Of a stretch of DNA of 64,000 bases, positions 26,638 to 58,749 are shown in pieces. Where the stretch lies: NCBI GenBank assembly GCA_026413625.1, contig JAOAKO010000002.1:6623-70622 (forward strand). The letters run 5' to 3'. Each line of letters begins with the position of its first letter. Positions within the stretch are counted from its first letter, which is position 1. The position numbers and the translations under genes were made by a program. This stretch comes from Candidatus Micrarchaeota archaeon. Lineage in GTDB: Archaea; Micrarchaeota; Micrarchaeia; CABMEP01. Under the pieces are notes generated by a model, which worked only from the letters and a program-made list of their open reading frames with translations, did not search any database and was not told the origin of the DNA.

Positions 26638-26709
26638 AGCCTCAGGCGAGAATTGAACTCGCGACCTCTACCTTACCAAGGTAGCGCTCTACCCCTGAGC
26701 TACTGAGGC
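26638..26709 (-). tRNA. tRNA-Thr (anticodon GGU)
   Basis: Acceptor GCCUCAG/CUGAGGC, anticodon stem CUACC/GGUAG with loop UUGGUAA, T-arm GCGAG-UUCAAUU-CUCGC. Confidence 0.75.
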
Positions 26710-27377: not shown

Positions 27378-27396
27378 AGGAGGAAGTGGTGGTTAG

Positions 27397-28554
27397 ATGG
27401 ACTTGGGGGAAATAGAATTTGACAATTTGGGTCCTGAAAAGATATTATTCGTTTATGACAGAAAGACTGGGATGAAGGGATGCGTAGTTATAGACAACAC
27501 TCTGCTTGGAATTGGAAAAGGAGGAATAAGAATGACTCCTTCAGTAACTGTAGGGGAAGTATGCAGACTCGCTCGAGCAATGACCCTTAAAAATTCATTA
27601 GCGGGCCTTCCATTCGGAGGCGCAAAAGCGGGAATTATGGCTTCCCAAGATGTGATCAAAGACTCAAGCAAAAAGAAAGAGTATATCGTGGCATTTGCAA
27701 AGGCGATCAAAGCAATTTGTCCTAAAATTTATGTGGCAGGCCCGGACATAAACACCGGAGAAGAAGAGATGAGATGGTTTGTCGAAGCAAATGGTTCCTG
27801 GAAATCCGCCACAGGAAAGCCGAAAGACATGTGCACCGGAAAAGATAAGACTAAATGCGGCATTCCCCATGAATACGGTTCCACTGGTTTTGGAGTTTGT
27901 CAAGCAGCCTTGGTGGCAATAAATTTTAAGAAAATGGATGTGAAAAGCATAAGCTTTGCAATTGAAGGATTCGGCAATGTCGGATACTTCGCTGCAAAGT
28001 ATTTAACTGAAAATGGGGCAAGGATGGTTGCAGTTAGCGATAGCAAAGGAACGCTCTACAATAGCGACGGAATCGATTTTTATAAGTTAGAAAAAGTAAA
28101 AAAAGAAACAGGCAGCGTGATAAATTATAGGCCGGGCCGGGTGCTTAAAACATCCGACTTGTTTGAGTTGGATGCGGACGTTCTTATTACAGCCGCTGTT
28201 CCGGACGTTATTAATAAGGACAACGTAGAAAAGATAAAAGCCAGGATAGTGGTAGAGGGCTCAAACATCCCAACAAGGCCAGAATACGAAGAAATCCTCC
28301 ACAATAAAGGAATATTGGTAGTCCCCGATTTTGTTGCGAATGCAGGGGGAGTGATATCTTCTTATGCAGAATACAAAGGGAAAAAGCCGGAAGACATGTT
28401 CAAACTAGTACAGAAAAAGATAACTAAAAATACAAAAGAAGTCCTAGAGCTGTCCAAAAAAGAAGGAATAAAGCCGAGGGATGCGGCAATGAAGATTGCG
28501 ATTAGCAGAATAAAAAGGAAACTGACATCTTCTAATGCAGGGGGTGGGATTTGA
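27397..28554 (+). CDS. Glu/Leu/Phe/Val amino-acid dehydrogenase family protein
   Basis: Catalytic GIGKGGIRM, and NAD-binding GFGNVG. Short for a GDH (385 aa). The 3' end overlaps the tRNA-Leu on the opposite strand. Confidence 0.75.
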   Translation: MDLGEIEFDNLGPEKILFVYDRKTGMKGCVVIDNTLLGIGKGGIRMTPSVTVGEVCRLARAMTLKNSLAGLPFGGAKAGIMASQDVIKDSSKKKEYIVAFAKAIKAICPKIYVAGPDINTGEEEMRWFVEANGSWKSATGKPKDMCTGKDKTKCGIPHEYGSTGFGVCQAALVAINFKKMDVKSISFAIEGFGNVGYFAAKYLTENGARMVAVSDSKGTLYNSDGIDFYKLEKVKKETGSVINYRPGRVLKTSDLFELDADVLITAAVPDVINKDNVEKIKARIVVEGSNIPTRPEYEEILHNKGILVVPDFVANAGGVISSYAEYKGKKPEDMFKLVQKKITKNTKEVLELSKKEGIKPRDAAMKIAISRIKRKLTSSNAGGGI

Positions 28555-35999: not shown

Positions 36000-37334
36000 T
36001 TAAAAGCCAAGCCCCTTTCCTTTAAACATTCTTTGCAGATTTCTTTGCATTCCTTTATTTCTCTGCAACTGCTCGTATAATTTCTTCATTTTTCCAAATT
36101 GGCTTATAAATTCTTTAATCGTAGAAGCAGGAATTCCCGAACCTTTCGATATTCTTTCGATTCTCGCCTGGCTTTTTCTTACCAAGTCTGGATTTTTTCT
36201 CTCTGCCTTTGTCATTGAGTTGATGATCGCCTCGTATTGCTCCATTTTTTGCTCTCCCTGTTCAAGAACTTCTTTCGGAACATTTACCATCCCAAGGGTT
36301 TCAAATATTCCTTTGAGCGGACCCATATTCTTTGCAGCTTTAAGCTGCTTATAGAAAGTTTCTATATTGAATTCTTCAGGCATCTCTTCCATTCCTTCCG
36401 GAATTGCCGCCTTCACTTTTTCAATCAAGGCTTCAAAATCAGGGACGCCCAAAATACGTCCAACGAATTTTGAGGGGTTAAACTCCTCAAGGTCCGCTAT
36501 CTTTTCTCCAACGCCTATAAACACTATCTTAACTCCGGCCGCAGCACAGGCAGTAAGCGCACCCCCGCCCTTCCCACTTCCATCCATTTTAGTTATCACA
36601 ACTCCAGTCAGCCCGATAGCACCGTTAAACTCTTCCGCCTGCTTTTTTGCAATCTGCCCTATGTCTGCAGATATTACAAGTATTTTTTCATCTGGTTTCG
36701 CCACTTCATTTATTTCTTTCAGCTCCGATATAAGCTCTTCGTCAAGCGCATCCCTACCGGACGTATCTATAATTATAACATCGTTTTTGAGGGTTTCAAG
36801 CCCTTCTTTTACAACATCTCTCGCCTTTACTCCGGCCCCTTTTCTGCCGTAGAAGTTGCACCCCACTTGCTTCGACAGCTGTTCAAGCTGCTCATACGCC
36901 GCAGGCCTCATCATGTCGGCAGCAATAACACCTACGCTCATCCCACGCTGCTTTAGGTAATAAGCAATTTTTCCTATTTGGGTTGTCTTTCCAGATCCAA
37001 AAAGCCCGCATACCATGATTCTTTGCGGCTTTAGCTCGAGCTTCCTTCCTTCGCCCATTATCTTAGTGAGTTCCTCGTAAACAATCGCATGGATGTGTTC
37101 GCTCATGCTTCGTCCGGCCGGAGGCTTTTCGTTGAGCGCCCTGTTCTCAATTTGCTTTGAAAGCCTATACACCAATTCTATATTTACATCGGACAATATT
37201 AGCGCTCTTTGTATATCCTTGATCATTGATTTTATCGCTGACTCGTCGATTATCGCCTTTCCTGTGATCTTAGCCAATGCTTTTCTTATTCCTTCTCCAA
37301 TGTTCATCTTATCACTCTTCACGGCTGAATCCAT
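36000..37334 (-). CDS. srp54: signal recognition particle protein Srp54
   Basis: N domain, G domain GLFGSGKTT, and a Met-rich M domain. Overlaps endA by 16 nt. Confidence 0.9.
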   Translation of the reverse strand: MDSAVKSDKMNIGEGIRKALAKITGKAIIDESAIKSMIKDIQRALILSDVNIELVYRLSKQIENRALNEKPPAGRSMSEHIHAIVYEELTKIMGEGRKLELKPQRIMVCGLFGSGKTTQIGKIAYYLKQRGMSVGVIAADMMRPAAYEQLEQLSKQVGCNFYGRKGAGVKARDVVKEGLETLKNDVIIIDTSGRDALDEELISELKEINEVAKPDEKILVISADIGQIAKKQAEEFNGAIGLTGVVITKMDGSGKGGGALTACAAAGVKIVFIGVGEKIADLEEFNPSKFVGRILGVPDFEALIEKVKAAIPEGMEEMPEEFNIETFYKQLKAAKNMGPLKGIFETLGMVNVPKEVLEQGEQKMEQYEAIINSMTKAERKNPDLVRKSQARIERISKGSGIPASTIKEFISQFGKMKKLYEQLQRNKGMQRNLQRMFKGKGLGF

Positions 37335-38464
37335 TCTATTTCATAATACTCGTATTTGCTGTTGGGCAATTCTATCCTCTTGACCCTGTAGTAAGTTACC
37401 GACGTTTCCCTATCCACTATTCCAAGCATGACGTCCAATCCGAGCCCCTTTGCCTCCTCTATCGCGCCGGCAAGCTCGTTTCCACCTATCATTTCCTCTT
37501 CGCTCAAGGAAACAAGCGCAAACGAAGGAGTGTCTTTATCCGGAGTCTCTATGTTATTGTTCTTTCTATGGTAAAGAAAGAAGCTTATAAGCCCTTTTTC
37601 AGACTTTGTTTTTTTGCCAGGTATCGCAAGTATAAAAGTTTTCCTAACTCCGTGCGCAACTCTTATCGCCCTGGCCCATTCAGCTATCAACATTCTCTTA
37701 TTCCTTGGAAACACATGGAGTACGTGCTTTGAATGGGTCCAGTCTTTGCCCTTGCCCGGGAGGGCTCCAGGGAAATAGATTCTAAAGTGCGTTCCGAACT
37801 TGAAGCCTGTCTTAACAACAAATCCGTTCATTCTCCAATCTTCATATACGTTGTACATGGATTCGAAGTCCTTGTCTTCGTTCAGGAAACTTTCAAATTC
37901 TTTTTTCGCCATATTGGCGATATTCAGGCCGCAATTCTTGACAAGAAAATACGTCTCGAATTTATCCAATTTAAGAAATTTGCCTCTTCCCTCTGCTTTG
38001 TAAGATCCGTATTGGCCTATCCAATAATTGTAATACAATTCCTTTCCGATTTTTTCATCCTCCAATACTGCCATCATGTCATCTTTGAAAAAGATCGCTT
38101 CCGTATGTATTTTCGGGAATTTGGTTTCCCTGCTGGGATATTTGACAGTCGGATTCTTCTCGTATTTTCCATCCTTTTTGTACGGCTTTATAACCAGTCC
38201 TCTTTCGCGCCAGTCCCTGAATGTCATGTATTCGGCGAACAGCTTGTCCCTGCTGAATCTGCTAGCAAGCTCGGAAAAGCTGACGTTTCTTCCGTTTTCA
38301 GTGCAAACCGCGTTTCTTACTTCGATCAGATACATCGCTTCTTCCGGAGTTAGCACTATCTCTCCTTTTTGCTTTTCACCGTAGTGCGACTTTCTAAGCG
38401 CTTCGTAATCCTCGGGGTTCTTTATTTTCAGAACGTTGTTTTCCATGAAAATAGCGATAGGCAT
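37319..38464 (-). CDS. endA: tRNA-splicing endonuclease (long form with duplicated domain)
   Basis: 381 aa, the size of a two-repeat (alpha2-type) EndA, and a C-terminal catalytic-domain pattern. Its position in an operon with srp54 is not informative. Confidence 0.6.
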   Translation of the reverse strand: MPIAIFMENNVLKIKNPEDYEALRKSHYGEKQKGEIVLTPEEAMYLIEVRNAVCTENGRNVSFSELASRFSRDKLFAEYMTFRDWRERGLVIKPYKKDGKYEKNPTVKYPSRETKFPKIHTEAIFFKDDMMAVLEDEKIGKELYYNYWIGQYGSYKAEGRGKFLKLDKFETYFLVKNCGLNIANMAKKEFESFLNEDKDFESMYNVYEDWRMNGFVVKTGFKFGTHFRIYFPGALPGKGKDWTHSKHVLHVFPRNKRMLIAEWARAIRVAHGVRKTFILAIPGKKTKSEKGLISFFLYHRKNNNIETPDKDTPSFALVSLSEEEMIGGNELAGAIEEAKGLGLDVMLGIVDRETSVTYYRVKRIELPNSKYEYYEIEWIQP

Positions 38465-43461: not shown

Positions 43462-43499
43462 TTTACCACGCCATAGTTGGAACGCAAAAGCAACATAAA

Positions 43500-43585
43500 A
43501 GCAATATATAATATATAAATAGAAATGAATTTAATTCTATTTTACTAATGTATTTAAGATATTGCCGCTCATTTCAAGTGATTAG
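43500..43585 (+). promoter_or_regulatory. putative archaeal promoter region (TATA-like boxes) ahead of the eight-gene membrane-protein operon
   Basis: Extremely AT-rich 86 bp between divergent leuS and paralog A, with ATATATAA and TTTAAGATA elements 25-80 bp upstream of the ATG. No experimental TSS. Confidence 0.25.
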
Positions 43586-45241
43586 ATGGTAGCAACGCTG
43601 CAGGAAATATTAGATCATTCGATAGCTACAGTTTTTAATACAGACTGGTTCGGAACATCGATATTAGCCCTTATTCTTTCTGCAGCTTTAAGCGCATTGG
43701 CATGGATGCTTTCTTCCGCGTTTCAATCAAACGAACTTAAGGGATGGGCCAGAAAAGAGCTAAGCGAATTCATAGTTTCAGCCTTGATCCTTGTTTTAAC
43801 AGTTCCTTTACTTATGGTTATTACAGGCATAACAATTGCATATGCAACAAGCGCTGATCCAAACATACAATACGGAAAAGCAGATCCCTTCTCCATTGCC
43901 AAAAGTTATTTGGATAAAGTTGAGCAACAATTGGTTTCGGTTTATACAGAAGTTTCAGGTTCTATCATTGTACTGACCGCTATTTCTTCTTTTAGCATAG
44001 ACCTTGGGCTGATAGCAAAGCTGTTGATCACTTTTCTGGCGTCTTTATTTTCCGGGGGAGCTGCAGCGATACCCGCATTCTTTACCAAATTCAGCGTTTT
44101 AATCGGAATGGGATCTCCATTTTCAACAATAACGAATTTTCTTGAAACAATCCAGTCTGCAATGATTGTAATACTCCTGGCCTTTTTTGTGCAAAAGGAA
44201 ATTTTATTTTTTATACAGGCGGCGGCATTGCCTGTATTGATGCCAACAGGAGTGCTGTTGCGCGCGTTTCCCTTGACTCGAAGAGCAGGCTCTACCTTGA
44301 TTGCATTGGCGCTGACATTGTTTATAGTCTATCCCTTGACTCTTGCGTTTGTTGGCCACATGTATGAAACCACGTATAATGCTGTGGTTTCGGAACAGCC
44401 AGCTCTGCAACCGCAAGGAGAGCTGCATCTTTTGGTAGAAAGGGAGCTTCCGTTATCGGGGGATTACTATCTTGACTATAAGCAGGAATTCAGATGGCTG
44501 ACATATTACAATATCACTTATTCCATATGGCACGATATTAATTGCAATCAGGCCGGCAGTTATTTTGATTCCCAGATAATGGGCAACAACCTGGCAATAC
44601 CTCCAGACAACCATAATTATTGGAGAATTACAAGCGAGGAAACGGTTTGGACTACAACGCCAGATGGAGTACCATTGCCGAATGTAATAACATCTTCAAA
44701 ATGCTATAAGAAGTTTATATACGGGGTTTCCGCAAGCAGTCAAACAATCGGATTCGTATTGACAAAAGATTATTATCCAGAAAAGGATTACAAAAACCAT
44801 TCCATAATACTGGTTGCAAAATTGAATGAAAACGCGCAGGCAATGCAAACAAATGTGGAAATATTCAATTTCTACCTAGGAAATCCATGTGAAAAATATC
44901 CGTTGCTATGCAAGCTTGGAATAGTCGGAGGGGAGGTTCCAATAAACGACGTGAGCTACGGTACAATCGCAATTGACGCCGCAATTTCAGGGTTGAAAGG
45001 AATGACTAAAACATTTGCAACAGTTGGCGGAAGAACGATTACAAACATCGGACTGACACCTTATGCCGCAGGATATGTGTTTTACGATTTCACAAACAGC
45101 CTGCCTTTGATGGTTCTTCCATTCTTGATTGTGCTATTCAGTTTTGTCGTAATACTTATGGTTTCAGTTTCATCTTTCAAGTCAATATCCACCACTCTAG
45201 GTGGGGAGACTAAACTTATAGAATTAGGCAGATTAATCTAG
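43586..45241 (+). CDS. paralog A of a novel polytopic membrane protein family (large extracellular insert)
   Basis: N-terminal TM then WARKEL amphipathic segment then TM. Central LMPTGVLLRAFPLTRRAGSTLIALALTLFIVYPLTLAF. C-terminal TM followed by LGGETKLIELGRLI. Shares three motifs with ORFs B-F. Confidence 0.7.
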   Translation: MVATLQEILDHSIATVFNTDWFGTSILALILSAALSALAWMLSSAFQSNELKGWARKELSEFIVSALILVLTVPLLMVITGITIAYATSADPNIQYGKADPFSIAKSYLDKVEQQLVSVYTEVSGSIIVLTAISSFSIDLGLIAKLLITFLASLFSGGAAAIPAFFTKFSVLIGMGSPFSTITNFLETIQSAMIVILLAFFVQKEILFFIQAAALPVLMPTGVLLRAFPLTRRAGSTLIALALTLFIVYPLTLAFVGHMYETTYNAVVSEQPALQPQGELHLLVERELPLSGDYYLDYKQEFRWLTYYNITYSIWHDINCNQAGSYFDSQIMGNNLAIPPDNHNYWRITSEETVWTTTPDGVPLPNVITSSKCYKKFIYGVSASSQTIGFVLTKDYYPEKDYKNHSIILVAKLNENAQAMQTNVEIFNFYLGNPCEKYPLLCKLGIVGGEVPINDVSYGTIAIDAAISGLKGMTKTFATVGGRTITNIGLTPYAAGYVFYDFTNSLPLMVLPFLIVLFSFVVILMVSVSSFKSISTTLGGETKLIELGRLI

Positions 45242-45248
45242 TGATGCA

Positions 45249-46127
45249 ATGAGCGGAACGTGTACAGCAGTAATAGACATCTGGCCGTTTATAGGCTTAG
45301 CGTCAGCTCTAACAATAGCCATAATAGCATTGCTATATTTGATAGGAAGAATAATGCAAAAGAGCGAGTTTGAGGCGGTTGCAAAAAAGGAATTGAACCA
45401 GTTCTTCCTTTCATTCTTAATAATATTGGGCGTTTTAGGCCTTGCAGGCATAGTGTGCAATGCAACTCCTTTGATAGCACAGGACATATTCGCAAGAGGA
45501 GATCACTTCTCAGTGTCTGAGGAATATCTCAATACGCTCGTCTATGGCAGAGGATTGCCGACAATCCAGAGGCTTTGGCTTTCATCGTTTATTTTGGAAT
45601 CTCTCTCAACAATCGAATATTCTACCATTCTGCCTTTAGGCAAGCTAAAATTCAGCCCTGGCGCAGTTCTTTTGCCTTTTGCAAAGTCAATAAGCGTATT
45701 TGATTCTCTTTTCACTATTTTAGTGGGAAGCATCCAGGCTCAGTTGGTCTTTTTGCAATTAGCCGAAGCATTTGCGCTTACACTTGTGCTGCCGATAGGG
45801 CTGATATTAAGGACCATACCTGGCTTAAGGAAAGGAGGCTCCTTCCTCATCGCTTTTTCATTTGGATTTTACGTGGTGTTTCCATTGACATATGTGATGA
45901 ACTATGCGATATATAGGCAAATAGATCCAAGCTTTGATTCATTGGTGCAATCGCCAATCTCTCCATTGGAAACGTTTAAACTTTCTTCAGATATCCTGTT
46001 AATATTTAAATATTTCAATGAATTTTCAATATTAATACCGCAGGCCACATTCCTTCCGATATTGAATCTTACCATAACCAGGTCATTTATAATCATATTT
46101 GCAAAATTCCTAAGCGATATTGAGTGA
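45249..46127 (+). CDS. paralog B, the shortest core of the same family
   Basis: AVAKKELNQF N-terminal motif. Central LVLPIGLILRTIPGLRKGGSFLIAFSFGFYVVFPLTYVM. Lacks the C-terminal KLI tail. 8 nt overlap with paralog C. Confidence 0.65.
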   Translation: MSGTCTAVIDIWPFIGLASALTIAIIALLYLIGRIMQKSEFEAVAKKELNQFFLSFLIILGVLGLAGIVCNATPLIAQDIFARGDHFSVSEEYLNTLVYGRGLPTIQRLWLSSFILESLSTIEYSTILPLGKLKFSPGAVLLPFAKSISVFDSLFTILVGSIQAQLVFLQLAEAFALTLVLPIGLILRTIPGLRKGGSFLIAFSFGFYVVFPLTYVMNYAIYRQIDPSFDSLVQSPISPLETFKLSSDILLIFKYFNEFSILIPQATFLPILNLTITRSFIIIFAKFLSDIE

Positions 46128-47304
46128 TAAGATGTTTGAATTATTATTTGCAGGATGGTTTCAACTGGCTGTTCTTGTAATATTCATCTCTTTGACTTTA
46201 GTTGCCATAATATACATGATTTCAAGCATGCTTCAGAATGATAACTTCAAGAAATGGGCTCAAAATGAATTATATCAAGTGCTGGCATCTGCGATGTTGC
46301 TTGGGTCGGTTTTCCTATTTTTAGGAATCATCGACAATATTGTTTTGAATCTGATCGCATTGATCAATCCAAGCCTCAATTTTCAATGCACCGGTTCGGT
46401 ATGCAGTTTCTCTGTAGAAAGATTCAATGAATTCGTGATAGGCCAGAATTTAGCTTCCCTTAAAATCGAGCGCATAGAATGCAACCAGGGATATTGCCAT
46501 ATTGAAGTTGCAAAGTCGCTTGTGAATAACTTCTATGACGTAATCAGATACTATACTGCAAACAAGATTGTCGACATAGGGTGGGTTTCCATATTCAGGT
46601 CCATGACAATCACCATCTATAATTCGTTCACTATTCAGCCTTTAGCGGGTCTGCAGCCTATCTTAGACATATACAAATCGTTCATCAGCTACATCGCATA
46701 TATCTTAATCTGGCTGAAAACAAACGAGATATTTCTGACATTCGTCTCAGTCGCGCTGTTTCCTTCATTTCTAGTTGCAGGAATAGCGCTCAGGTCCATC
46801 TCCATAATGAGAGGATTGGGAGGCTTGTTGCTTTCGATCGCGGTCGGGTCATTTTTTATATATCCGATGCTTCTGATTTTTGTTACCACAATCATATCCC
46901 CAGATCCGAATTATCACGTTATATCATTTTCAGATTCCAGCGGATTTGCAGCCAATATTCCGGAAATATCGGATAGCGGTTCGGCCGGTACTGGAAACAT
47001 AATATCCAGCAGATCAACAATAGACTCACAGAAGGAATCTGCAAACAGCTTGATCAGATTCTTTGAAAAGATGTTTTCCTTTGTATTAATCAAGCATGAG
47101 GACGGCTCCACATCCGACATATTTACTCATTTGATGTTTCGGACGATCGAGCCGGGGGGCTTCTTGGACAGCATAGCATTCTTATCCGTATGGGTGATAG
47201 TTCCTGCAGTGATTTCAATATACGGAACATTGGTGTTCATAAAAGAGTTTTCAACATTTTTAGGGGGAGATATAGACATAGCCGGGCTGTCAAAGTTAAT
47301 ATAG
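46120..47304 (+). CDS. paralog C of the same family
   Basis: KKWAQNELYQV. Central FLVAGIALRSISIMRGLGGLLLSIAVGSFFIYPML. C-terminal FLGGDIDIAGLSKLI. Confidence 0.7.
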   Translation: MSDKMFELLFAGWFQLAVLVIFISLTLVAIIYMISSMLQNDNFKKWAQNELYQVLASAMLLGSVFLFLGIIDNIVLNLIALINPSLNFQCTGSVCSFSVERFNEFVIGQNLASLKIERIECNQGYCHIEVAKSLVNNFYDVIRYYTANKIVDIGWVSIFRSMTITIYNSFTIQPLAGLQPILDIYKSFISYIAYILIWLKTNEIFLTFVSVALFPSFLVAGIALRSISIMRGLGGLLLSIAVGSFFIYPMLLIFVTTIISPDPNYHVISFSDSSGFAANIPEISDSGSAGTGNIISSRSTIDSQKESANSLIRFFEKMFSFVLIKHEDGSTSDIFTHLMFRTIEPGGFLDSIAFLSVWVIVPAVISIYGTLVFIKEFSTFLGGDIDIAGLSKLI

Positions 47305-47322
47305 CTTAACAACAGTGATAAT

Positions 47323-48474
47323 ATGGGGGAACTGAATTATAGAAATTTCATATTGGCATTTCTCCTTACTTTAAGTTCTATTCCTTTCTCATTTGCGCAG
47401 GATACAATTACTCTAAGAAACGTACCTTGGATGCTGACCGTAATCGCAGCCTTATTGGTTGTTTTGTCTTTAATTGTTATAGGATATTTATTCTCTAAAT
47501 TCTTTAATATAAAAGAGCTTGCATCATGGGCAAACAATGAGCTGTATCAGATAATAATGATGAGCCTGATCGTATTTTTCATATTCGGCTTGTTGAGGCT
47601 GGAAAGCTTCATATTCGAAGCATACGGCTTTACACCTTCTATGAGGGGGGAGAACCCTTCGATAGACAATGCTAAATTATATCTGAATTCAGTAAGGTCA
47701 TACTTAACTTTTGTTTTGGGCGGTTTGCTTATAGAGAAGAACGCGCTTTCGCTGTCAAACAGCCTCTTAGAGCAAGCCATTGACTCGGGAAGCAAGGGAA
47801 TACTAAAGGCATTGCAAAACAACAAATATTTCTCAGGATTTAAAATATTCAAGATAGACAACAAAGCGATTGCTAAATCATTCACAAATGTATTCTCTTC
47901 AGTTCTAGAAAAGGCGTTAGCCCCCTTTACATTTGTATACGCTTTCAATTCAATGCAACTTTACTTTCTTGAATTTATAGAGAGATATGCATTCCATTTC
48001 TTCCTTCCTTTCGGGCTTTTCTTTAGGGTGTTTAGCTTTAGTAGAAAGTTTGGAAACATCCTTATCGCACTTTCAATTGGATTTTATATTGTTTTCCCGC
48101 TAACATATCTTATAAGCCAAAGCATAGTGGATTCAGTTTTAAACTTCGGCAAAGTCGGAAACCAATACAGTTGGAAAGACATACTTGGAGCAAGAATGGG
48201 CCAAACGAACAACGCTGTAAGCGACCTTTCAGGCTCCAGTTGGGTTGACAGGCTAAAAGAAGAGTTAACTAGAGAAATCGCAAATCCAATCGCAAACGGA
48301 ATAAGCTTTGCTATAAAATTAGTTTTCGCCTTATTTAGCGAGGCGGCATTTGCATTTGTGCTATTCACTTTGGTGCCGATAATAGGTTTTACAATCACGG
48401 TAAGCGTTGTGAGGGATTTAGGTTCATTGCTTGGTTCAGATATCGCGGTGAACGATCTGCTTAAGATGCTATAG
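47323..48474 (+). CDS. paralog D of the same family
   Basis: ASWANNELYQI. Central FFLPFGLFFRVFSFSRKFGNILIALSIGFYIVFPLTYL. C-terminal LLGSDIAVNDLLKML. Confidence 0.7.
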   Translation: MGELNYRNFILAFLLTLSSIPFSFAQDTITLRNVPWMLTVIAALLVVLSLIVIGYLFSKFFNIKELASWANNELYQIIMMSLIVFFIFGLLRLESFIFEAYGFTPSMRGENPSIDNAKLYLNSVRSYLTFVLGGLLIEKNALSLSNSLLEQAIDSGSKGILKALQNNKYFSGFKIFKIDNKAIAKSFTNVFSSVLEKALAPFTFVYAFNSMQLYFLEFIERYAFHFFLPFGLFFRVFSFSRKFGNILIALSIGFYIVFPLTYLISQSIVDSVLNFGKVGNQYSWKDILGARMGQTNNAVSDLSGSSWVDRLKEELTREIANPIANGISFAIKLVFALFSEAAFAFVLFTLVPIIGFTITVSVVRDLGSLLGSDIAVNDLLKML

Positions 48475-48487
48475 TTGGTGAAAGAAT

Positions 48488-50116
48488 ATGTCAAATAAAG
48501 AACGATTCGTGTTCAAAATGCTAATAATGCTAACGCTAGCATCGGCATTCCTGCTTGCACAGGGAGAGTCTGATCCACTGAATAAAATAATCACTGCAGA
48601 TCAAAAGGCGTGCAATTTTATGCTTTCAACCGATGACTGGAGAATATTGAGCGCCATTGCATTGTTTTTGAGCGCTATGTTCATAGCGGGAATGTACATA
48701 TACGGTTCTGTAATAGACTCTTCATTTATAGATAGGGCGAAAACCGAATCTTATCAACTGGTGTTCACCGGAATTTTAATTGTTTTCTTCGGACTTATAT
48801 TATCTCTAATGTGCGGGGATTTTATTTCCAGCATTTTCCAGTCTCAAGGCTCTGCGTATGTGGCTTCCTATAATTACCTTAACACATTGGCAAAAGATTA
48901 CATACAAAAAACAACAATAAACCTTGCAATTGCAGCCTCAATACTTTCCCTGGTCAGCAGTACCGAGATAGAAGGCTACCAAAAGACGGGAACTTTGCTT
49001 TCCTGGATCTCCGATCCAATTTCGTTCTTTTCTGATTCGCTCTTCCTTTTGTTCGGCTCATTGGTATTTGCATACGTTGTAACAATAACTCAGATTAACA
49101 TACTTGCTATAATACCGTATCTTTCCCTAATGTTTTTCATACCTGTCGGGATGGTTTTCCGTTCGCTATATCCATTTAGAAAGTTCGGAGGCGCACTGAT
49201 AGGATTAGGAATCGGATTGTATGTATTTGTGCCGATAGTGCTGCTATTCAACAACATGATAATGCAGGTTTTCACACCGCCAGATCTAAGCTTCGAACCG
49301 CTTCAATTACAATGCATCGACAACAGCGATTGCTATTCGCATATGTGCGAATATTCCTCTCCGCCAGGGTTCAAAATATGCAAGCCGATGAAGAAGGCCG
49401 GGGAATTTTGTAATTCAAATTTCGAATGCAAATCGGGCATATGCGCCTTGACATCGACAGGTAGGAAATGCTTGGAATGCGGCATAGAAGGCTCGAACAA
49501 TCCGATATGCTGCCCAGGATTCATAAGAAACGAGTCAACAGGATTATGCGCATTCGCCAAATCAAGCAACGAGTTATGTAAAAGCGACAGCGAATGCATA
49601 TCCGGGCGATGCATTCCTTCAGTGAGCGAGACTACAGGCGACCTGCAAACCATATGCGCGCCTAAACTGAAGCTTGGCGAAAGATGCAATTCCGATAGCG
49701 ATTGCATCTCCAATTCATGCGGCGGAGTCGCACCGAATAAAGTATGCAAGAAAACGTTAGTAAATGAAGAGGATAAGCAGATCATACTTGCGAATTATGC
49801 AAACTATCTGAGCAAAGAGCCGAGCAGTTACGTCTCTTCGAATTATGAGGTTTCGGTTTCAGGCATGACCACTGCAAAAGCGGTGCTAGACCAAAGCACT
49901 GTTGAGCAATTTCTAAGTTCGGAATTAGACTTGGGCAAAGAAAAGGTGTCATTGGGGTTGCTTTATGATTTGATAATCGCGCCGATAGTTTTGGTATTTA
50001 TACTTGGCGTATTGCTTCCGCTCCTAAACATAACACTGATTTCAAAAGCAGTTTCAGACTTGTCTGAAACATTTGGCGCAGAAATAGAGATAGCTGAAAT
50101 ATGGAGACTAATATGA
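48488..50116 (+). CDS. paralog E of the same family, with a Cys-rich extracellular repeat insert
   Basis: RAKTESYQL. Central FFIPVGMVFRSLYPFRKFGGALIGLGIGLYVFVPIVLL. ~150 aa insert with four or more Cx5Cx4C repeats (CNSNFECKSGIC, CKSDSECISGRC, CNSDSDCISNSC). C-terminal FGAEIEIAEIWRLI. Confidence 0.7.
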   Translation: MSNKERFVFKMLIMLTLASAFLLAQGESDPLNKIITADQKACNFMLSTDDWRILSAIALFLSAMFIAGMYIYGSVIDSSFIDRAKTESYQLVFTGILIVFFGLILSLMCGDFISSIFQSQGSAYVASYNYLNTLAKDYIQKTTINLAIAASILSLVSSTEIEGYQKTGTLLSWISDPISFFSDSLFLLFGSLVFAYVVTITQINILAIIPYLSLMFFIPVGMVFRSLYPFRKFGGALIGLGIGLYVFVPIVLLFNNMIMQVFTPPDLSFEPLQLQCIDNSDCYSHMCEYSSPPGFKICKPMKKAGEFCNSNFECKSGICALTSTGRKCLECGIEGSNNPICCPGFIRNESTGLCAFAKSSNELCKSDSECISGRCIPSVSETTGDLQTICAPKLKLGERCNSDSDCISNSCGGVAPNKVCKKTLVNEEDKQIILANYANYLSKEPSSYVSSNYEVSVSGMTTAKAVLDQSTVEQFLSSELDLGKEKVSLGLLYDLIIAPIVLVFILGVLLPLLNITLISKAVSDLSETFGAEIEIAEIWRLI

Positions 50117-50164
50117 TTTAATATTTATGTTCAATATAAGTATAAATGCAAAAAGGAAGATAAG

Positions 50165-51355
50165 ATGAGATTCACCAAGATATTGCCGATAGTATTCATG
50201 CTTTTAATTCCATTCATAAACGCCCAGCTGCAAAGCGAAGTCGGAAAGCAGTTCCAAGCAGTATGGCAGTCTTCAGGCTTTCCATGGGAACTTTTGGCAA
50301 TAGTTGCAGTGTTTATCGGCTTCAGCTATTCAGCGCTTTCATTCATGCTCTCAAAACTGTTCTCATCCAGCGATCTTGAAAAGATTGCGAAATATGAATT
50401 TCTTTACGCGATTTCGTCCTTGTTTTTAGTCGTTTTCATGATCTTTGTGATAGATATACTTGCCGTAAAATCGGGCCAGTATGTCTACCTCCTGTCACTA
50501 AATCTCGGGGACTCGCCATTCATGCAGAATTTAAAGGCCTACGCCGCAAGTTCGGGATACTCCCCGTTTGTCGTTGCGAAATTTTACCTTGACAGCTCAG
50601 CTGTAATCGCTAGGATGAGGTACCAGGAGGCCTTCTGCGCCGCCTTTCCTTTGATGGCGGTTTCTTCTCTAAGCAAGGAAAAGGGAGCAGACCTTTCGAA
50701 GGTTCCGGACAGCAAAATAAAAGACATGTTTTCATTTTTGACATCAAAAGGGCCTCTGTCTCAGACCGCAATCGCAGGGATAGGTCTATTAATAACTTCT
50801 CTACAGAAGGCAATGTCGAATTTGGCCTATTTGATATATTCAATATATTTCCAACAGCATCTGCTTAGTTTCATACAGAGCACCATGCTCACAATATTTT
50901 TGCCTGCAGGTTTGGTTTTAAGGTCTTTTCCATTCGTTAGGTCTATAGGAAATCTCCTGATCGCCATAGCAATAGGGTTGTATTTCGTGTATCCGATATC
51001 TTACAGCCTGTTCATAGTTATTTCTTCCCAAGGGAATACCCAATTAGGAAAGGTGTTCATAAGCGGGGAGGAGGCGAATATTCCGCTGACATGCGTCAGA
51101 ACCCTAGTTCCGGATTTAATCGTTTCCACCACAACTACAGTTTTCAAAATGATACAGGCTCCGTTTACAGAAAAAATATCGGTTGCTAGCGTGTTGAACG
51201 AGCAGATAAACAGGCTAATAACCGAGCTGATAATGCTTGGATTCGTGTTTCCATTCTTAGCCGCAGTATTAACATACACTTTCATAAAGTCATTCGGAAT
51301 GGTGCTGAACGCAGACATCCAAGAGTTTGCAGAAGGATTAGTCAAATTGATATGA
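50165..51355 (+). CDS. paralog F of the same family
   Basis: EKIAKYEFLYA. Central IFLPAGLVLRSFPFVRSIGNLLIAIAIGLYFVYPISY. C-terminal LNADIQEFAEGLVKLI. Confidence 0.7.
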   Translation: MRFTKILPIVFMLLIPFINAQLQSEVGKQFQAVWQSSGFPWELLAIVAVFIGFSYSALSFMLSKLFSSSDLEKIAKYEFLYAISSLFLVVFMIFVIDILAVKSGQYVYLLSLNLGDSPFMQNLKAYAASSGYSPFVVAKFYLDSSAVIARMRYQEAFCAAFPLMAVSSLSKEKGADLSKVPDSKIKDMFSFLTSKGPLSQTAIAGIGLLITSLQKAMSNLAYLIYSIYFQQHLLSFIQSTMLTIFLPAGLVLRSFPFVRSIGNLLIAIAIGLYFVYPISYSLFIVISSQGNTQLGKVFISGEEANIPLTCVRTLVPDLIVSTTTTVFKMIQAPFTEKISVASVLNEQINRLITELIMLGFVFPFLAAVLTYTFIKSFGMVLNADIQEFAEGLVKLI

Positions 51356-51414
51356 TTCATAGCAGATAAAAAGTTTATATATAAAATAAGCGTAATAAAA
51401 TCAATGGTGTTTGA

Positions 51415-53862
51415 ATGAAGGCGCGCACTATCATATTGGCATTGGCTTTTACATTGCAGCTTCTCGCATTCATATCTGCACAAGTAAAGACGCAGACCCT
51501 TCTATTGGAATTGAATTACCTTAAGCTGGACAACGATAACTATAATTTTTCAGCCAAGCTTGTTTCAATTTACATTCCGGAATCTAGTCAGACGCTGAAA
51601 GACCAGATAGAGACCGGGAAAGCAGACCCGTCCCAGCTTGTTAGCAAATTTGATTATTCTCCTTTGCCAAGCCAGGAAATAAAAGTCTATTCTATAAGTT
51701 CTTATGACGAGAATGTAAGGGAGCTGCTTTGCATAATGAAAACAGATGAAAATGGAGTTGGAAGTTGTGTGGCCAGAGCGACAGCCGCGACAGATAGGGA
51801 AATCCGCTTTGTCTATGAAGGAGATGAGACCCATGTCAGAACCCAAGGCTCCTTTGCAATAACAGGTTCATTTTCGTCTCCGCCTTTGAAGGATCTAATC
51901 GATGCAAGCTGGATAATTCTATTTATAATAATAGGCGTCTCCATAGCTGCGCTCTATGCTTCAGGAAGAGACCCAACTAGCATTTTAGATATAACCACTC
52001 CAAAAATAAAGGGGGTTAAATCGCCCAAGGCCCAAAAATTAAAATTTGAAGGGAAAGGAAAAGCGATATTAGCCGCATCCTCAGCATTGGCAGGAACAAC
52101 CGCCTTCTTAGGAAGAATGTACTGGAAAGGAAATTTAAACATAAGCGTTCTTAAGACTCTAAACACCACTGAGAAATACCTGTCTCCGCAAGAGAGAAGG
52201 GAAATAAAATCACTATACAACACCACTTCAGTGTTTGCAACTGCAAAGATAGCAGAGAAAGCAGCGGCAGTTAGACCAAAGCTGATTAAAATGATAAACA
52301 GCACCAACAGAAAGCTTCTAAGCAAACAAAAAGCGAAAGCAAAGCTACAGGAACTTAAGAACAGGCTAAAAACAGAAGGGGAGCAATGGAGGCTCCAGGA
52401 AATGGAGAAGAAGATAGATCGCGATATAGAGAGATATACGAGAGAGATACAAACATATGAAAAAGACCTAAGAGCAATGTCTTCAGAGGCATTGATTTCA
52501 TCCATCGGCCTCAACGATATTATTATCGATAGGTTTAAGGAGACAAAAGACACAATTGACAGCAAGATATTGTCTTCATTAATTCAATATATCAATGATC
52601 CAAGGAATGCAAAGCTTAATATCAAGGAAATCAAGGAGTATTCAATATTCTCGACCGATGCAATGGGAATAAAAGACATAGAAGCGGAAAACAGGGTGCA
52701 TTCGGTTTTTCTTGCTAAAATAGAATTAGAGCGCCTTTACATAGCGGAAGCAATAAAGGTACTGAATATAGTTTCAAACAAGTTCGATTCGCTATCCGGG
52801 GAAGAGAAAGCCAAATACTACAAAATATTAAACCTGCTTGAACCAGAAAAAGAAAGGCTTAATCATATAAAGGAAATCTATAAAAACAAGGAGATAATCA
52901 AGGAAAGCATAAAGGATTTAGGGATTGATTATTATCTGAATGAGTTAAAGAACAAGCTGAATTCGCTCAGCGCTGAATCAGAGGAATACAAAAAGCTTAG
53001 CTCCTTAATCGAGCAATTAAAAAACAAAAGCGACGAGGAGAAAATTAAAGAACTTGCAGATGTGCACCATCAAACAGGCGTAAAGCTTCATGATTCATTT
53101 TTGAGCGAAATTGCCAAAGCAAGAGAGAGCTTGAATAACTCAATAAACAACTTTTATTCTGAATATGAAAAGTATCACAAGAAAGAAACAACGGATATTG
53201 AGCAGACCGCTTTGAAGACAATCATAGAGTTTGGAGTTATGTCAAAAAAGGCAGCCGATTACTTTGCTGACATCAATTCAGGAAGAGTTCCTTATAGCCA
53301 TGACTATCCAAAATTGGATCAGGAGTCGGCAAAGAAGATATTTGATATAATCGCAATCAAATACGATCCAGAAATAAATTTCGAAATTTTGTACAACGCG
53401 TATATCTCTCCCTTCATGAAAGAGCACACGGTTGAATTTGCAAAAGAAAGAATTAGATATTTTGAAGACGAAGAAGTCGGAAGGACTGTTTTCGAAAAGC
53501 TGTTCAATGACATATGGTATCTGAGGATAGATCCAAAGGAGGAATATTACAACTTAGATATGAAGCTGATCGGCTATTACGGAGTTGAGAAAGCCTTGCA
53601 AAAGATGGAGACAGAGAAGATTATCCTCCGGGGCGAGCCGGATTGGGAAGGCAAGAAGGCAGCGCTCGACTATGCCGAATACTTCATAAGAACTTACAGT
53701 CCCGATAAGTTGGGCTATGATGAAAAGAAACAGATCGGCTATGAGGAGAAGAAACTTATCGGCTATGAGCAAAAGAAACAAATCGGATACGAATCAAAAA
53801 AACTAATCGAGTATAAAGGGAAAAAGAAGGAAAATTCAAAAGATGATAAGGACAAAGAGTGA
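51415..53862 (+). CDS. signal-peptide and single-TM protein with a ~600 aa K/E-rich coiled-coil domain and C-terminal octapeptide repeats
   Basis: N-terminal signal MKARTIILALAFTLQLLAFISAQ, a ~150 aa ectodomain, a TM helix WIILFIIIGVSIAALYA, a long heptad-rich region, then the C-terminal repeats LGYDEKKQIGYEEKKLIGYEQKKQIGYESKKLIEY. Confidence 0.65.
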   Translation: MKARTIILALAFTLQLLAFISAQVKTQTLLLELNYLKLDNDNYNFSAKLVSIYIPESSQTLKDQIETGKADPSQLVSKFDYSPLPSQEIKVYSISSYDENVRELLCIMKTDENGVGSCVARATAATDREIRFVYEGDETHVRTQGSFAITGSFSSPPLKDLIDASWIILFIIIGVSIAALYASGRDPTSILDITTPKIKGVKSPKAQKLKFEGKGKAILAASSALAGTTAFLGRMYWKGNLNISVLKTLNTTEKYLSPQERREIKSLYNTTSVFATAKIAEKAAAVRPKLIKMINSTNRKLLSKQKAKAKLQELKNRLKTEGEQWRLQEMEKKIDRDIERYTREIQTYEKDLRAMSSEALISSIGLNDIIIDRFKETKDTIDSKILSSLIQYINDPRNAKLNIKEIKEYSIFSTDAMGIKDIEAENRVHSVFLAKIELERLYIAEAIKVLNIVSNKFDSLSGEEKAKYYKILNLLEPEKERLNHIKEIYKNKEIIKESIKDLGIDYYLNELKNKLNSLSAESEEYKKLSSLIEQLKNKSDEEKIKELADVHHQTGVKLHDSFLSEIAKARESLNNSINNFYSEYEKYHKKETTDIEQTALKTIIEFGVMSKKAADYFADINSGRVPYSHDYPKLDQESAKKIFDIIAIKYDPEINFEILYNAYISPFMKEHTVEFAKERIRYFEDEEVGRTVFEKLFNDIWYLRIDPKEEYYNLDMKLIGYYGVEKALQKMETEKIILRGEPDWEGKKAALDYAEYFIRTYSPDKLGYDEKKQIGYEEKKLIGYEQKKQIGYESKKLIEYKGKKKENSKDDKDKE
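53713..53811 (+). repeat. four 24 bp tandem repeats (GGCTATGA.GA.AAGAAACA.ATC) encoding G-Y-(D/E)-E-K-K-(Q/L)-I
   Basis: Read directly in the sequence at the 3' end of ORF 51415-53862. Confidence 0.7.
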
Positions 53863-53868
53863 TCGTAT

Positions 53869-55938
53869 ATGCGCAAAAAATTATTTCTTTTTTCAGTGTT
53901 AGCAATCTTTTTTATTTTGCTGTCTGGCTGCATTAAGAAGGCAGAGCCAATGAGCAGCTATCTTACCGTGGAGCAAGTGAAATATCTTGAGCAGAAGTAT
54001 TCTTCAGTCAACGAATGCACGGCCATGGTGTGCAAATACGAGTCAAAAATTCAATCTATTTGGGATTGGTTCAAAGGAATTTTTACAGGAGTAGAATATC
54101 CTAATATAAAGAATTGCGAATTTAAGAGTTTTAACGTTGAGGCACAGAAAGACAAAAATACTCTTGACATGCTTACTGGAAAATACGGATTGACAAGTTC
54201 AAATAGCGAATTTGTTCAGTCCACAATGGTGGGCGTGGGAGATACGGTATCCGCAGGAGAAGACATGTTCGCAAAATGCAACGGAAATCTAGGCATAAAC
54301 CTCATCGACATATCAGAAATTCCTAAAGTGGGAAATGAAGCACCGTTCAAAACCAAGTTTTTGAATATGCAGTCATGCATTCTAAAGTCTGGAACCATTC
54401 CGTTTTATAAATACGGAAAGGTTGCAATGGACACATCTCTTTTAGGCAACATGCTTAGCAAAATGGGGCCGGTCTTCATTTCGCCAGGCTATGAATACAG
54501 CAAAGCCAGCTTCGACCCATCAATAGTACCGCCCACAGCCGCATTTTCTCAGCTAAATAGCACATGCAGCAACTGCATAATCACCGCAACCATAAAGTAC
54601 GGGGATTTCGACACGATAGAATCATACCGTTCTTCTGGTTTGTTGGTTTGGGAAAGCATTGACGTCATAGCATTTACAGTCAACATAAGTTCCTTTAGCT
54701 CATGCGATCCGTTCATTGTAATCAACAACGAAACAGACTCAATAAAGTGGTTTGCCCAAAATCTAACCGAAAGATATCACAAACCAGTAATAGTCATCGC
54801 TCACGGTAGGGAAGGAAGAAACTCGGCCAATACTTGCGAATGGACAAACAATTCGATCGCAAGATTTTACGAATATCTCATTAAGTACATTCCAGAGCTG
54901 ACATCTTCTGGAGTCATCGCAGTCATCGCTCCAGACGCTTCCCAGCTTCCATCTGACGCATATAAATCGCTCGGATTTTTCTGTACAATTTACTATTCCC
55001 CGGGAGGAACGGCCAGGAATTTTGCATCGTATGCAATTTTCTCAAAGCAAGGCGACAAACCTTCCCTATGCGGAGAATACAACGCTCCGATTAGAATGTT
55101 TTACGAGCCGATAAATTACAGCGCATTGCCTTCCCTTAATGCTAAAAAAGACGAGTCATGCAGCGCAAAGATGGCCCTAGATCTTAGCAGATTTAATGCA
55201 GGCACCTCTTCCAGCGGCATTTGTGCAAAAAACAATCTCACCATCCAAAATATGGCGGCAAAGCATTTCATAGATTCGTCACTTTATATGGCGGTTCTTC
55301 AGAAACTGGGATATTACCAATCTCAGTTTAGCCAAATTCAGCAGTACGAGAAACATTGCGGAACTAAATGCAACGCATATGCAAATGATGAGCAGAAAGA
55401 TCTGTGCTGTCTTGCCGAAACAATGGCATACTACCAAAACAAAACCATAAGCAAAAAAACGAGCATAGGCGATGGCGATCTTGCTTATTTCATTGCCTAC
55501 GGAACACTTAAGGGCGAATCTTCATATAATCAAGAATTCAACAGATACTCCCCGATTCAAATGGCCGAGGAAAGCGATTCGAAACAAATTTCATTGTCTT
55601 TCGCCTCTTCTTCCACGAATTCAAAATCAGCTTATCTGCAAACAGCGCAATGCGACCTGTATATGGCGCTTTGCAAGGATTATAAATTGTTAAGCTATTG
55701 CCAGCTTTATGATCAAATGTGCAAATACCAAACGCCTACGATACCTCCAACGCCAACACCTCCAACACCGCCAGGAAAACCCACTCCACCCGAAACGCCA
55801 ACTTCACCAACTCAACCAACCCAGCCAACCCAGCCCGGAACACCGCCGACAGGTGTAGACCAATTCGTTTATGATCCCAATGTAAAACAAGTACTGAACG
55901 ACGCAGTTGCAATAAGGATTGCCTGCGGCTTCAAATGA
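53869..55938 (+). CDS. large Cys-rich lipoprotein with C-terminal Pro/Thr-rich linker
   Basis: Lipobox-like LLSGC after a signal peptide. ~30 Cys residues. C-terminal PTIPPTPTPPTPPGKPTPPETPTSPTQPTQPTQPGTPPTG, then a short conserved-looking tail. Confidence 0.65.
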   Translation: MRKKLFLFSVLAIFFILLSGCIKKAEPMSSYLTVEQVKYLEQKYSSVNECTAMVCKYESKIQSIWDWFKGIFTGVEYPNIKNCEFKSFNVEAQKDKNTLDMLTGKYGLTSSNSEFVQSTMVGVGDTVSAGEDMFAKCNGNLGINLIDISEIPKVGNEAPFKTKFLNMQSCILKSGTIPFYKYGKVAMDTSLLGNMLSKMGPVFISPGYEYSKASFDPSIVPPTAAFSQLNSTCSNCIITATIKYGDFDTIESYRSSGLLVWESIDVIAFTVNISSFSSCDPFIVINNETDSIKWFAQNLTERYHKPVIVIAHGREGRNSANTCEWTNNSIARFYEYLIKYIPELTSSGVIAVIAPDASQLPSDAYKSLGFFCTIYYSPGGTARNFASYAIFSKQGDKPSLCGEYNAPIRMFYEPINYSALPSLNAKKDESCSAKMALDLSRFNAGTSSSGICAKNNLTIQNMAAKHFIDSSLYMAVLQKLGYYQSQFSQIQQYEKHCGTKCNAYANDEQKDLCCLAETMAYYQNKTISKKTSIGDGDLAYFIAYGTLKGESSYNQEFNRYSPIQMAEESDSKQISLSFASSSTNSKSAYLQTAQCDLYMALCKDYKLLSYCQLYDQMCKYQTPTIPPTPTPPTPPGKPTPPETPTSPTQPTQPTQPGTPPTGVDQFVYDPNVKQVLNDAVAIRIACGFK

Positions 55939-58564: not shown

Positions 58565-58679
58565 GCGCGGGGTATGGGATTCGAACCCATATACCCTTTC
58601 GGGAACTGGTTTTCCCTTTGTTTAATTAGGGTAAAACAGAAATTCGAGACCAGCGCACTACCAGGTTATGCGAACCCCG
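58565..58679 (-). tRNA. intron-containing class II tRNA, most likely tRNA-Ser (anticodon CGA) with a ~31 nt intron 3' of position 37
   Basis: Acceptor GCGGGGU/ACCCCGC, D-arm, anticodon stem CUGGU...ACCAG interrupted after CUCGAA by a ~31 nt insert (UUUCUGUUUUACCCUAAUUAAACAAAGGGAA), a long variable arm UUCCCGAAAGGGUAU, T-arm AUGGG-UUCGAAU-CCCAU, discriminator G. Confidence 0.65.
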
Positions 58680-58749
58680 CACTGAATATAATATGCACTA
58701 ACTGCTTAAAAATCTTAAGCACAAAAGCATTTAAAAAAAGAAATGCTGA

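Follow-up and report, generated by a model that had tools for sequence, protein, structure and literature searches.

Among the membrane-protein systems described so far, those that can be compared most directly with the genes reported here belong to type IV secretion. VirB6 has five transmembrane (TM) helices in an N-out, C-in orientation and a large loop on the outer side, and it is best conserved at the central TMs and at the cytoplasmic loop between TM3 and TM4 (PMC7648143). In the obligately host-associated Rickettsiales, tandem arrays of four to five VirB6 paralogs are characteristic (PMC7648143). The VirB6-like membrane proteins of the archaeal Ced and Ted systems have 5 to 7 TMs, and the N-terminus of CedA is homologous to the CedA1 pilin, as VirB6 is to VirB2 (PMC9905601). 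Ced components are scattered in Sulfolobales genomes and include the channel paralogs CedA and CedE (PMC11868833). Here we describe an eight-gene cluster in a 64-kb stretch of DNA from a Candidatus Micrarchaeota archaeon (64,000 nucleotides of contig JAOAKO010000002.1, referred to below as the window). Six tandem genes (A to F) encode paralogs of one polytopic membrane protein, and they are followed by a gene for a single-span protein with a long charged cytoplasmic part (G) and a gene for a Cys-rich lipoprotein (H). The reading that we prefer is that the cluster encodes a domesticated envelope conduit, derived from a type IV secretion system (T4SS), for exchange with a host. We place the probability of this reading at about 0.45, a combined value that was lowered because the conduit function is inferred from ancestry and lifestyle.

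An initial annotation, made from the letters of the window alone, had seen an unrecognised polytopic membrane-protein cluster in a probably host-dependent archaeon and had suggested a cell-surface, cell-contact, or channel apparatus that is so far undescribed. The first statement is supported, and the organism is a member of the Micrarchaeota (DPANN). The apparatus we judge to be a reasonable reading, and no description of the family or of the gene cluster was found in the literature. The eight open reading frames (ORFs) are co-directional and were found exactly where that annotation had placed them. Together with the upstream region, they are as follows.

43462..43585, forward strand: putative promoter region of the cluster; AT-rich, between the divergent leucyl-tRNA synthetase (LeuRS) gene and gene A
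43586..45241, forward strand: gene A, paralog A at position 1 (551 aa); five-TM core, second extracytoplasmic insert of ~250 aa, acidic C-terminal tail
45249..46127, forward strand: gene B, paralog B at position 2 (292 aa); minimal core, hardly any inserts, tail-less C-terminus
46120..47304, forward strand: gene C, paralog C at position 3 (394 aa); overlaps B by 8 nt
47323..48474, forward strand: gene D, paralog D at position 4 (383 aa); N-terminal signal-like helix that ends in FAQ
48488..50116, forward strand: gene E, paralog E at position 5 (542 aa); signal-like N-terminus, second insert of 242 aa with 20 Cys
50165..51355, forward strand: gene F, paralog F at position 6 (396 aa); signal-like N-terminus, very long extracytoplasmic helices
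51415..53862, forward strand: gene G (815 aa); signal peptide, ectodomain, one TM, long charged cytoplasmic part
53869..55938, forward strand: gene H (689 aa); lipoprotein with a lipobox, 23 Cys, and, towards the C-terminus, a linker rich in Pro/Thr

The intergenic gaps from A to H measured 7, -8, 18, 13, 48, 59, and 6 nt, in agreement with the range of -8 to +60 nt given at first. The NCBI start of gene C, an ATG at 46132, gives a protein of 390 aa; B and C are identical to N3G74_00700 and N3G74_00705, which are deposited as hypothetical proteins of a Candidatus Micrarchaeota metagenome-assembled genome (MAG). Reading by eye, we noted the TATA-like elements TATATAAATA and ATTTAAGA ~30 nt 5' of the gene A ATG and TTTATATATAAAA ~35 nt 5' of gene G. 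The region at 43462..43585 is thus likely to hold the promoter of the cluster. The claim of a single transcription unit for A to H stands as plausible and is qualified by a possible internal promoter before G.

The six proteins A to F are homologous beyond chance. Pairwise BLASTP E values, computed with a nominal database size of 1e8 residues, ranged from 8e-13 (A/F) to 1e-4, and a hidden Markov model (HMM) of the family scored the six between 2e-56 and 2e-85 (A, 4e-70; F, 2e-85), recovering E, the most divergent paralog, at 2e-56. The same HMM found no seventh family member elsewhere in the window. A word-index search for homologs returned close relatives only, and an exhaustive search of representatives was needed to show the size of the family. 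Searching 1.84 billion cluster representatives (50%-identity clusters) with HMMER and an alignment of the core gave 2,865 representatives at an E value of ≤1e-3 and 1,734 at ≤1e-10. Every source that carried an organism name was Micrarchaeota or Micrarchaeia.

As the initial annotation had stated for the six paralogs, none of the proteins could be assigned to a named family. Scans of A to H against Pfam, NCBIfam, and PHROG gave nothing above noise, and searching PDB sequences with the profile of the family and with G, H, and two proteins like G returned no match. No Pfam domain was present in 67 sampled family members, and a Pfam scan of long members, G-like proteins, and neighbouring proteins yielded no informative domain fusions. 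A Walker A motif was flagged in some family and G-like ORFs; there was no ATPase profile match behind it, and it was set aside.

Three colinear signatures had been proposed for the paralogs, of which two are general. The first (TM1, the amphipathic segment W-A-x-x-E, and TM2) was confirmed, with an invariant Glu. The second, a central block with the consensus FLPxGIxLRxFPxTRxxGxxLIAxAIGLYxVYP, is conserved across 149 family members, in which its G, R, G, and P are invariant and its second R is found in at least 90%. The third is a final TM with an acidic tail behind it that closes with LxKLI; five paralogs (A, C, D, E, and F) have it, and B, which ends in FAKFLSDIE, has no acidic tail. Based on hydropathy, charge distribution, and AlphaFold2 models of B and F (predicted local distance difference test scores of 90.7 and 86.1, respectively), the paralogs share a plan in which five TM helices lead from an outside N-terminus to a cytoplasmic C-terminus. 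The N-termini are acidic or come after a signal-like helix (D, E, and F). TM1 and TM2 are linked by the short cytoplasmic amphipathic segment with the invariant Glu, and TM2 is followed by an extracytoplasmic bundle with helices of 35 to 57 residues, which in B has a beta-hairpin at its tip. The cytoplasmic TM3-TM4 loop (LRxFPxxRxxG) contains two to three K/R and zero D/E. After TM4 comes a second extracytoplasmic insert of 29 to 250 residues and then TM5 and the cytoplasmic tail. The extracytoplasmic location first proposed for the inserts is borne out by this basic loop and by the 20 Cys in the second insert of paralog E. The paralog E insert (window positions 49300 to 49900) also had sub-threshold matches to Toxin_29 (E value, 2.5e-4), Dickkopf_N, and DUF7107, which suggest small disulfide-rich repeats, and its Cys spacing is knottin/EGF-like.

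We collected loci from species-representative genomes (n = 17) and metagenomes (n = 43), in addition to loci L001 to L005, and scanned all of their ORFs with the family HMM. Six-gene arrays were present at 34 loci from Micrarchaeota MAGs and metagenomes, with a GC content of 0.27 to 0.61, and arrays that were bounded on both sides had exactly six family genes in 27/27 cases. The order of the genes is fixed as well. A position-3 query matched the third gene in every array. Among distant comparisons, that is, pairs of loci with a bit score below 150, the best match was at the same ordinal position in 68.4% of 5,995 comparisons, against 16.7% by chance. This rate was 84 to 90% for positions 2, 3, and 6, with position 3 (the C orthogroup) the best conserved at 90%. 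Position 2 encodes a short, tail-less subunit in 34/34 six-gene loci, and position 3 has the tail GGD(V/I)EIAGLxRLI in 34/34 (written GGD(I/V)(D/E)IAGLxKLI for the C orthogroup). The inserts are position-specific, can be aligned among orthologs within the clade of the window, and evolve faster than the core; comparing the window with L003 position by position, the cores were 51 to 62% identical and the inserts 28 to 42%. No recent duplicates, pseudogenes, or copy number variation were seen in the arrays.

The six genes are an ancient, fixed set of six orthologous groups and not the diversifying paralog array of the initial annotation. A fixed number in a fixed order is the pattern expected for subunits of one stoichiometric hetero-oligomer, and the six proteins very probably form a single hetero-oligomeric membrane complex. 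The gene order of the whole cluster is conserved in part: A to F are fixed, G recurs in five lineages, and H is confined to the clade of the window. In one MAG (DRTY-6_201705_bins_89), two six-gene arrays (L007 and L013) lie on different scaffolds, are ~25% identical, and belong to different clades, so that either the genome carries two systems or the bin is mixed.

Tandem VirB6 paralogs within one operon are also found in the rvh T4SS of Rickettsiales (four in Anaplasmataceae and five in Rickettsiaceae) and in the Bartonella Trw system. The rvh arrays resemble the Micrarchaeota arrays in their obligate host association and in a number and order that are conserved across the order, and their paralogs have different extra domains, some of them surface-exposed (PMC7648143). 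In rvh, however, the TrbL/VirB6 Pfam domain is recognisable, virB3 and virB4 are adjacent, and the organisms are diderm bacteria, whereas the Micrarchaeota set has six members, no detectable TrbL domain, and an adjacent ATPase in L053 only.

The protein encoded by G has an N-terminal signal-like helix, an ectodomain of ~140 aa, one TM near residue 170, and a K/E-rich, helical cytoplasmic part of ~630 residues (115 K+R and 107 D+E), and so bears out its first description as a signal peptide, ectodomain, one TM, and a long charged part. Its TM is followed by the juxtamembrane motif ASGRDPxSILDITTPK and a Lys-rich segment. Using an HMM of the TM plus the juxtamembrane motif (ASG(R/K)(D/N)PxxxLDITxP(K/R)), we found G-like genes adjoining the six genes in the clade of the window and, beyond it, divergently upstream at L013, L021, L022, and L059 and downstream at L060. 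They thus recur in five separate lineages and in either orientation, with cytoplasmic parts of ~400 to over 1,000 residues in which no ATPase or other domain was detected. G is likely to be a recurrent seventh component of the complex. Its Lys-rich juxtamembrane segment and the acidic tails of the subunits are both on the cytoplasmic face, and contact between them is our guess.

Several features of individual G genes were also seen. The C-terminus of G in the window (~53700 to 53830) has four to five tandem IGY(E/D)(E/Q)KK(Q/L) repeats before a Lys/Asp-rich end. Shorter G orthologs (L003 and L007 to L010; 587 to 588 aa) align by BLASTP to the N-terminal ~460 to 500 residues of G only. In L006 (~11800 to 11950), a run of N breaks the G ortholog into two ORFs; this is an assembly gap and not a biological frameshift. 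H, with the lipobox LLSGC and 23 Cys, is the Cys-rich lipoprotein of 689 aa that it had been taken for. H-like genes follow G only in the clade of the window (L003 and L006 to L011), and H is a clade-specific part of the system.

The overall plan of G recalls the SPEARE-type giant proteins of Nanohaloarchaeota, which are also DPANN and which combine an ectodomain, a TM, a cytoplasmic VirB4/TraG-like ATPase, and a coiled coil. Common to both are a signal peptide, an ectodomain, one TM, and a large part with coiled coil in the cytoplasm, and SPEARE proteins have been proposed to belong to a T4SS-like host-interaction device (PMC10266531). The differences are that G and its relatives have no detectable ATPase and that the ectodomain of G is small.

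VirB6/VirB2 type IV secretion is the only connection of the family for which there is positive evidence, and the strongest argument for such a descent is the adjacency and fusion of pilin modules to the six genes. At L043, a two-TM hairpin gene lies directly 5' of position 1 and matches Pfam T4SS_pilin over its full length (27.8 bits, E value of 2.7e-6; gathering score, 26.6 bits). At L004, three genes upstream encode or end in a two-TM hairpin homologous to that of L043, with TrbC/VirB2 as the best Pfam match (E value of 0.006, below threshold). In another clade, the N-terminus of the position-2 subunit is fused to two tandem hairpins in L030, L032, L036, L040, L041, and L044 (E values of 2.6e-12 to 5e-5). 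Overall, T4SS_pilin matched 7/14 hairpin modules and TrbC matched 3/14. In an hhalign comparison with the family, the hairpin profile aligned in register with TM1-loop-TM2 (columns 17 to 73; E value of 0.002), which echoes CedA with CedA1 and VirB6 with VirB2 (PMC9905601), and the N-termini of B and D had weak single-sequence matches to pilin-like conjugal families (NF045849, E value of 0.14; DUF2976, E value of 0.07). Moreover, the family has the VirB6-type topology of five TMs, N-out and C-in, with a large extracytoplasmic loop. In L053, the second gene 3' of the six encodes an ATPase that scored best on NCBIfam CedD (9e-19) and CedB (1e-16), followed by VirB4-like families and HerA.

Two of these loci have further genes of note. 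In L004 (1672 to 3321), a 549-aa secreted Ser/Thr/Cys-rich protein ends in a pilin-like two-TM hairpin, as do two small neighbour genes, and is a pilin module with a large extracellular domain. In L053, where the subunits of the array are unusually short, a co-directional block 3' of the array (7511 to 14182) encodes two single- or double-TM proteins, the ATPase, a two-TM protein, a coiled-coil protein, and a 574-aa surface protein with a C-terminal TM, in addition to a 99-aa protein that resembles the sequence of the ATPase of the block (phmmer, 3e-16). This block may be a fuller form of the machine.

A number of results weigh against descent from type IV secretion. The probability of the hairpin-to-family alignment was just 14%. 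In the window, no hairpin ORF of at least 40 aa matches the hairpin HMM, and most loci have no pilin-like gene within ±10 kb. A VirB4/CedB-like ATPase was found neither in the 64-kb window nor within ±10 kb at other loci, and the ATPase link comes from the single locus L053. Comparing the family with an alignment of TrwI/VirB6 by hhalign gave a probability of 0.2%, although this alignment was narrow (25 sequences; Neff, 2.7) and may therefore miss a very remote VirB6 homology. PF04610 (TrbL/VirB6) had no match in A to F at E values up to 1 and none in 67 family members at E values up to 0.01. A fold search with the model of paralog F returned generic coiled coils only and did not recover VirB6. 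The negative profile comparison and a VirB6 fold match that was not replicated with F are the main objections. Because the sequences give no match to VirB6/TrbL, we do not file the family there. On balance, we consider it an even bet that the subunit descends from a VirB6/VirB2 module.

The initial judgment that the paralogs are not obviously VirB6 is thus correct at the profile level, but type IV secretion is also the one link that has positive support. Its other exclusions (GspF/TadC, FtsX, and MmpL) hold, since no T2SSF/GspF/TadC/ArlJ, FtsX-type, or MmpL/RND profile in Pfam or NCBIfam matched. The profile method works on this genome, as a genuine T2SSF protein at 24958 to 26634 was detected at an E value of 1.6e-20. 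No search placed the conserved core confidently in a characterised family.

Compared with VirB6/TrbL as represented by TrwI of R388 (PDB 7o3v/8rt9), the Micrarchaeota family matches the descriptions of VirB6 in topology and in the location of conservation, and differs in having no sequence or profile similarity and no VirB6 in the fold search with F. TrwI forms a homopentamer, in contrast to the six distinct subunits found here, and the operon described here has no VirB3, VirB4, VirB5, or VirB8. VirB6/TrbL systems are borne on plasmids or integrative and conjugative elements, whereas the Micrarchaeota cluster is chromosomal and vertically inherited across the phylum. Ced and Ted (CedA/CedE/TedA, with the pilins CedA1/TedC and the ATPases CedB/CedD/TedB), which we compared by description only, are domesticated, chromosomal, minimal derivatives of T4SSs in archaea. 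A further likeness is that the L053 ATPase scores best on CedD and CedB. In contrast to the fixed series of six found here, Ced and Ted have a single channel protein or two paralogs; a coiled-coil partner like G is missing from them, and they occur in Thermoproteota and not in DPANN.

On the conduit reading, the six genes would give six different subunits of one hetero-oligomer in the cytoplasmic membrane, for which the most economical arrangement would be a pseudo-symmetric ring in which each occurs once. Every subunit would extend long helices ~5 to 6 nm into the space under the surface layer (S-layer) and would carry its own position-specific insert, while the cytoplasmic side would present the invariant basic TM3-TM4 loop and, in 5/6 subunits, an acidic tail. 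G would join as a seventh part that links the complex to the cytoplasm, and H would be a clade-specific outer lipoprotein accessory. The machine as a whole would be a chromosomal, vertically inherited derivative of the mating channel of type IV secretion, like archaeal Ced/Ted, in which the subunit would resemble VirB6/CedA, with its first two helices as the counterpart of a VirB2-type pilin hairpin. The likeliest job of the machine would be that of an envelope-spanning conduit through which macromolecules (DNA or protein) or bulk metabolites are exchanged with the host.

Bridges, nanotubes, and a docking barrel, to which no genes are assigned, have been seen in DPANN archaea by cryo-electron tomography (PMC11329633, PMC8975820). 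A more specific form of the conduit reading, which we regard as distinctly unlikely, makes the six subunits and G the DPANN-side portal, a pseudo-hexameric envelope-spanning ring of six different VirB6-like proteins for docking to host structures and uptake of DNA, lipids, or metabolites. Such a portal could match the barrel-shaped complex under the ARM-1 S-layer where host nanotubes enter. A new host-contact or docking pore that does not come from type IV secretion is improbable in our view; here the helical bundles, the distal beta-hairpin, and the variable inserts would recognise the host membrane or a host-derived nanotube, insert into it or dock with it, and open a cytoplasmic bridge, and the 21-nm ARM-1 barrel would be an attractive match to test (PMC11329633). 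We also consider unlikely a purely structural scaffold of the envelope that has nothing to do with transfer and serves in S-layer anchoring or spacing, cell shape, or division. The tall helical bundles would then be stalks in the pseudo-periplasm, analogous to SlaB in Sulfolobales, as the long extracytoplasmic helices in the models would allow. How Ca. Micrarchaeum harzensis anchors its S-layer is not known, and there is a proposal for a second membrane stalk protein (bioRxiv 10.1101/2021.04.28.441871; PMC8975820). Most loci lack an ATPase in the operon, and the cluster is phylum-wide and chromosomal, lies among housekeeping genes, and in one clade has two FtsZ genes directly 3'. Against this, the FtsZ adjacency is limited to that clade, and six distinct subunits in a fixed order with conserved cytoplasmic motifs are elaborate for a passive anchor. 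A scaffold also leaves unexplained both the adjacency and fusion of T4SS-pilin modules and the CedD/CedB-like ATPase of L053.

We see little prospect that the proteins form a multi-subunit solute or lipid transporter or permease that scavenges from the host. The organism is metabolically host-dependent, and the proteins are polytopic with conserved charged residues (the Glu of loop 1 and two Arg in the TM3-TM4 loop); yet the invariant residues are on the cytoplasmic face and not within the membrane, and large structured ectodomains are atypical for permeases. Moreover, no transporter family in Pfam, NCBIfam, or PDB resembles them, and the operon has no ATP-binding or substrate-binding partner. 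Scarcely credible is an array of surface adhesins or antigens diversifying by tandem duplication, which was the framing of the initial annotation. The extracytoplasmic inserts do differ among paralogs and evolve faster than the core, but the constant copy number of six in 27/27 arrays, the conservation of order and orthogroups across the phylum, and the lack of recent duplicates, pseudogenes, or copy number variation in the arrays all speak against it.

Housekeeping genes surround the arrays. Upstream of the six genes, a divergent LeuRS gene is found in the window as well as in L002, L015, L018, and L055, and other neighbours of the arrays include AspRS/AsnRS-type (aspartyl-/asparaginyl-tRNA synthetase) or SerRS (seryl-tRNA synthetase) genes. 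No relative of the family was found on IMG/VR viral contigs. We considered an origin from a mobile element and rejected it, as there were no viral-contig relatives, no integrase, and no compositional break, and the synteny with aminoacyl-tRNA synthetase genes is deep. These observations indicate that the cluster is core and chromosomal, and together with the tight spacing and overlaps of the genes, they fit a core cellular machine. One clade has two FtsZ paralogs and a gene for a DUF2070 membrane protein after the six genes (L015, 11058 to 13220; L018, 10984 to 14974; L038, 15574 to 19570); this adjacency, restricted to the one clade, is treated as synteny. On the upstream side, L038 has an ORF of 910 aa. 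In L020 (11709 to 16915), the six genes are followed by an ORF6N/Rha-domain protein, of a kind typical of mobile elements, and by a 1,444-aa Cys-rich secreted protein without a Pfam match.

The window also holds, on the forward strand at 23555 to 26634, a T2SSE-family ATPase gene (23555 to 24961) and the T2SSF platform protein gene (24958 to 26634), which are an assembly pair of type IV pilus or archaellum-like type. A tRNA-Thr gene (26638 to 26709, reverse strand) lies 3' of the T2SSF gene and is followed by two unannotated ORFs (26775 to 28554) that could be pilins. The pair was considered as a part of the system and set aside, because it is 17 kb from the cluster and absent from other loci; between the two are DNA polymerase B (30309 to 32702), a cation ATPase, SRP54, and other housekeeping genes. 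At 1 to 421 (forward strand), the 3' end of an archaeal large-subunit rRNA is cut by the edge of the window (Rfam RF02540, 337 bits), and this end of the 23S rRNA confirms the archaeal origin. A tRNA at 58566 to 58680 (reverse strand) was detected by the Rfam tRNA model (44 bits) and missed by ARAGORN; at 115 nt, it is probably intron-bearing, in keeping with a tRNA-intron endonuclease gene that is expected at 37319 to 38464 from synteny with L003. A PAS-HisKA-HATPase histidine kinase (7313 to 9244, reverse strand) adjoins a response-regulator receiver protein (9301 to 10509, forward strand); for a reduced DPANN genome, a two-component system is a mild surprise.

For the question of how, in physical terms, lipids, nucleotides, and DNA pass from hosts to DPANN archaea, the cluster offers a concrete phylum-wide gene set, consisting of seven proteins with a defined topology, conserved cytoplasmic motifs, and a thread to type IV secretion. 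Six fixed paralogs that have a bitopic partner with a coiled coil, lack an ATPase in the operon, and are inherited vertically throughout a DPANN phylum are probably a new architecture. As a practical consequence, a family name, with positions labelled 1 to 6, could be assigned to ~2,900 sequence clusters that now carry the label "hypothetical". If the portal reading were true, the complex would be a machine that defines the phylum and is the basis of its symbiotic lifestyle, with an architecture unknown in any secretion system. If the conduit reading is true, this would be the first channel-type subunit fixed as six distinct paralogs, which bears on how symmetric oligomers evolve into asymmetric hetero-oligomers, and it would extend the domesticated T4SS-derived systems Ced and Ted from Thermoproteota to DPANN.

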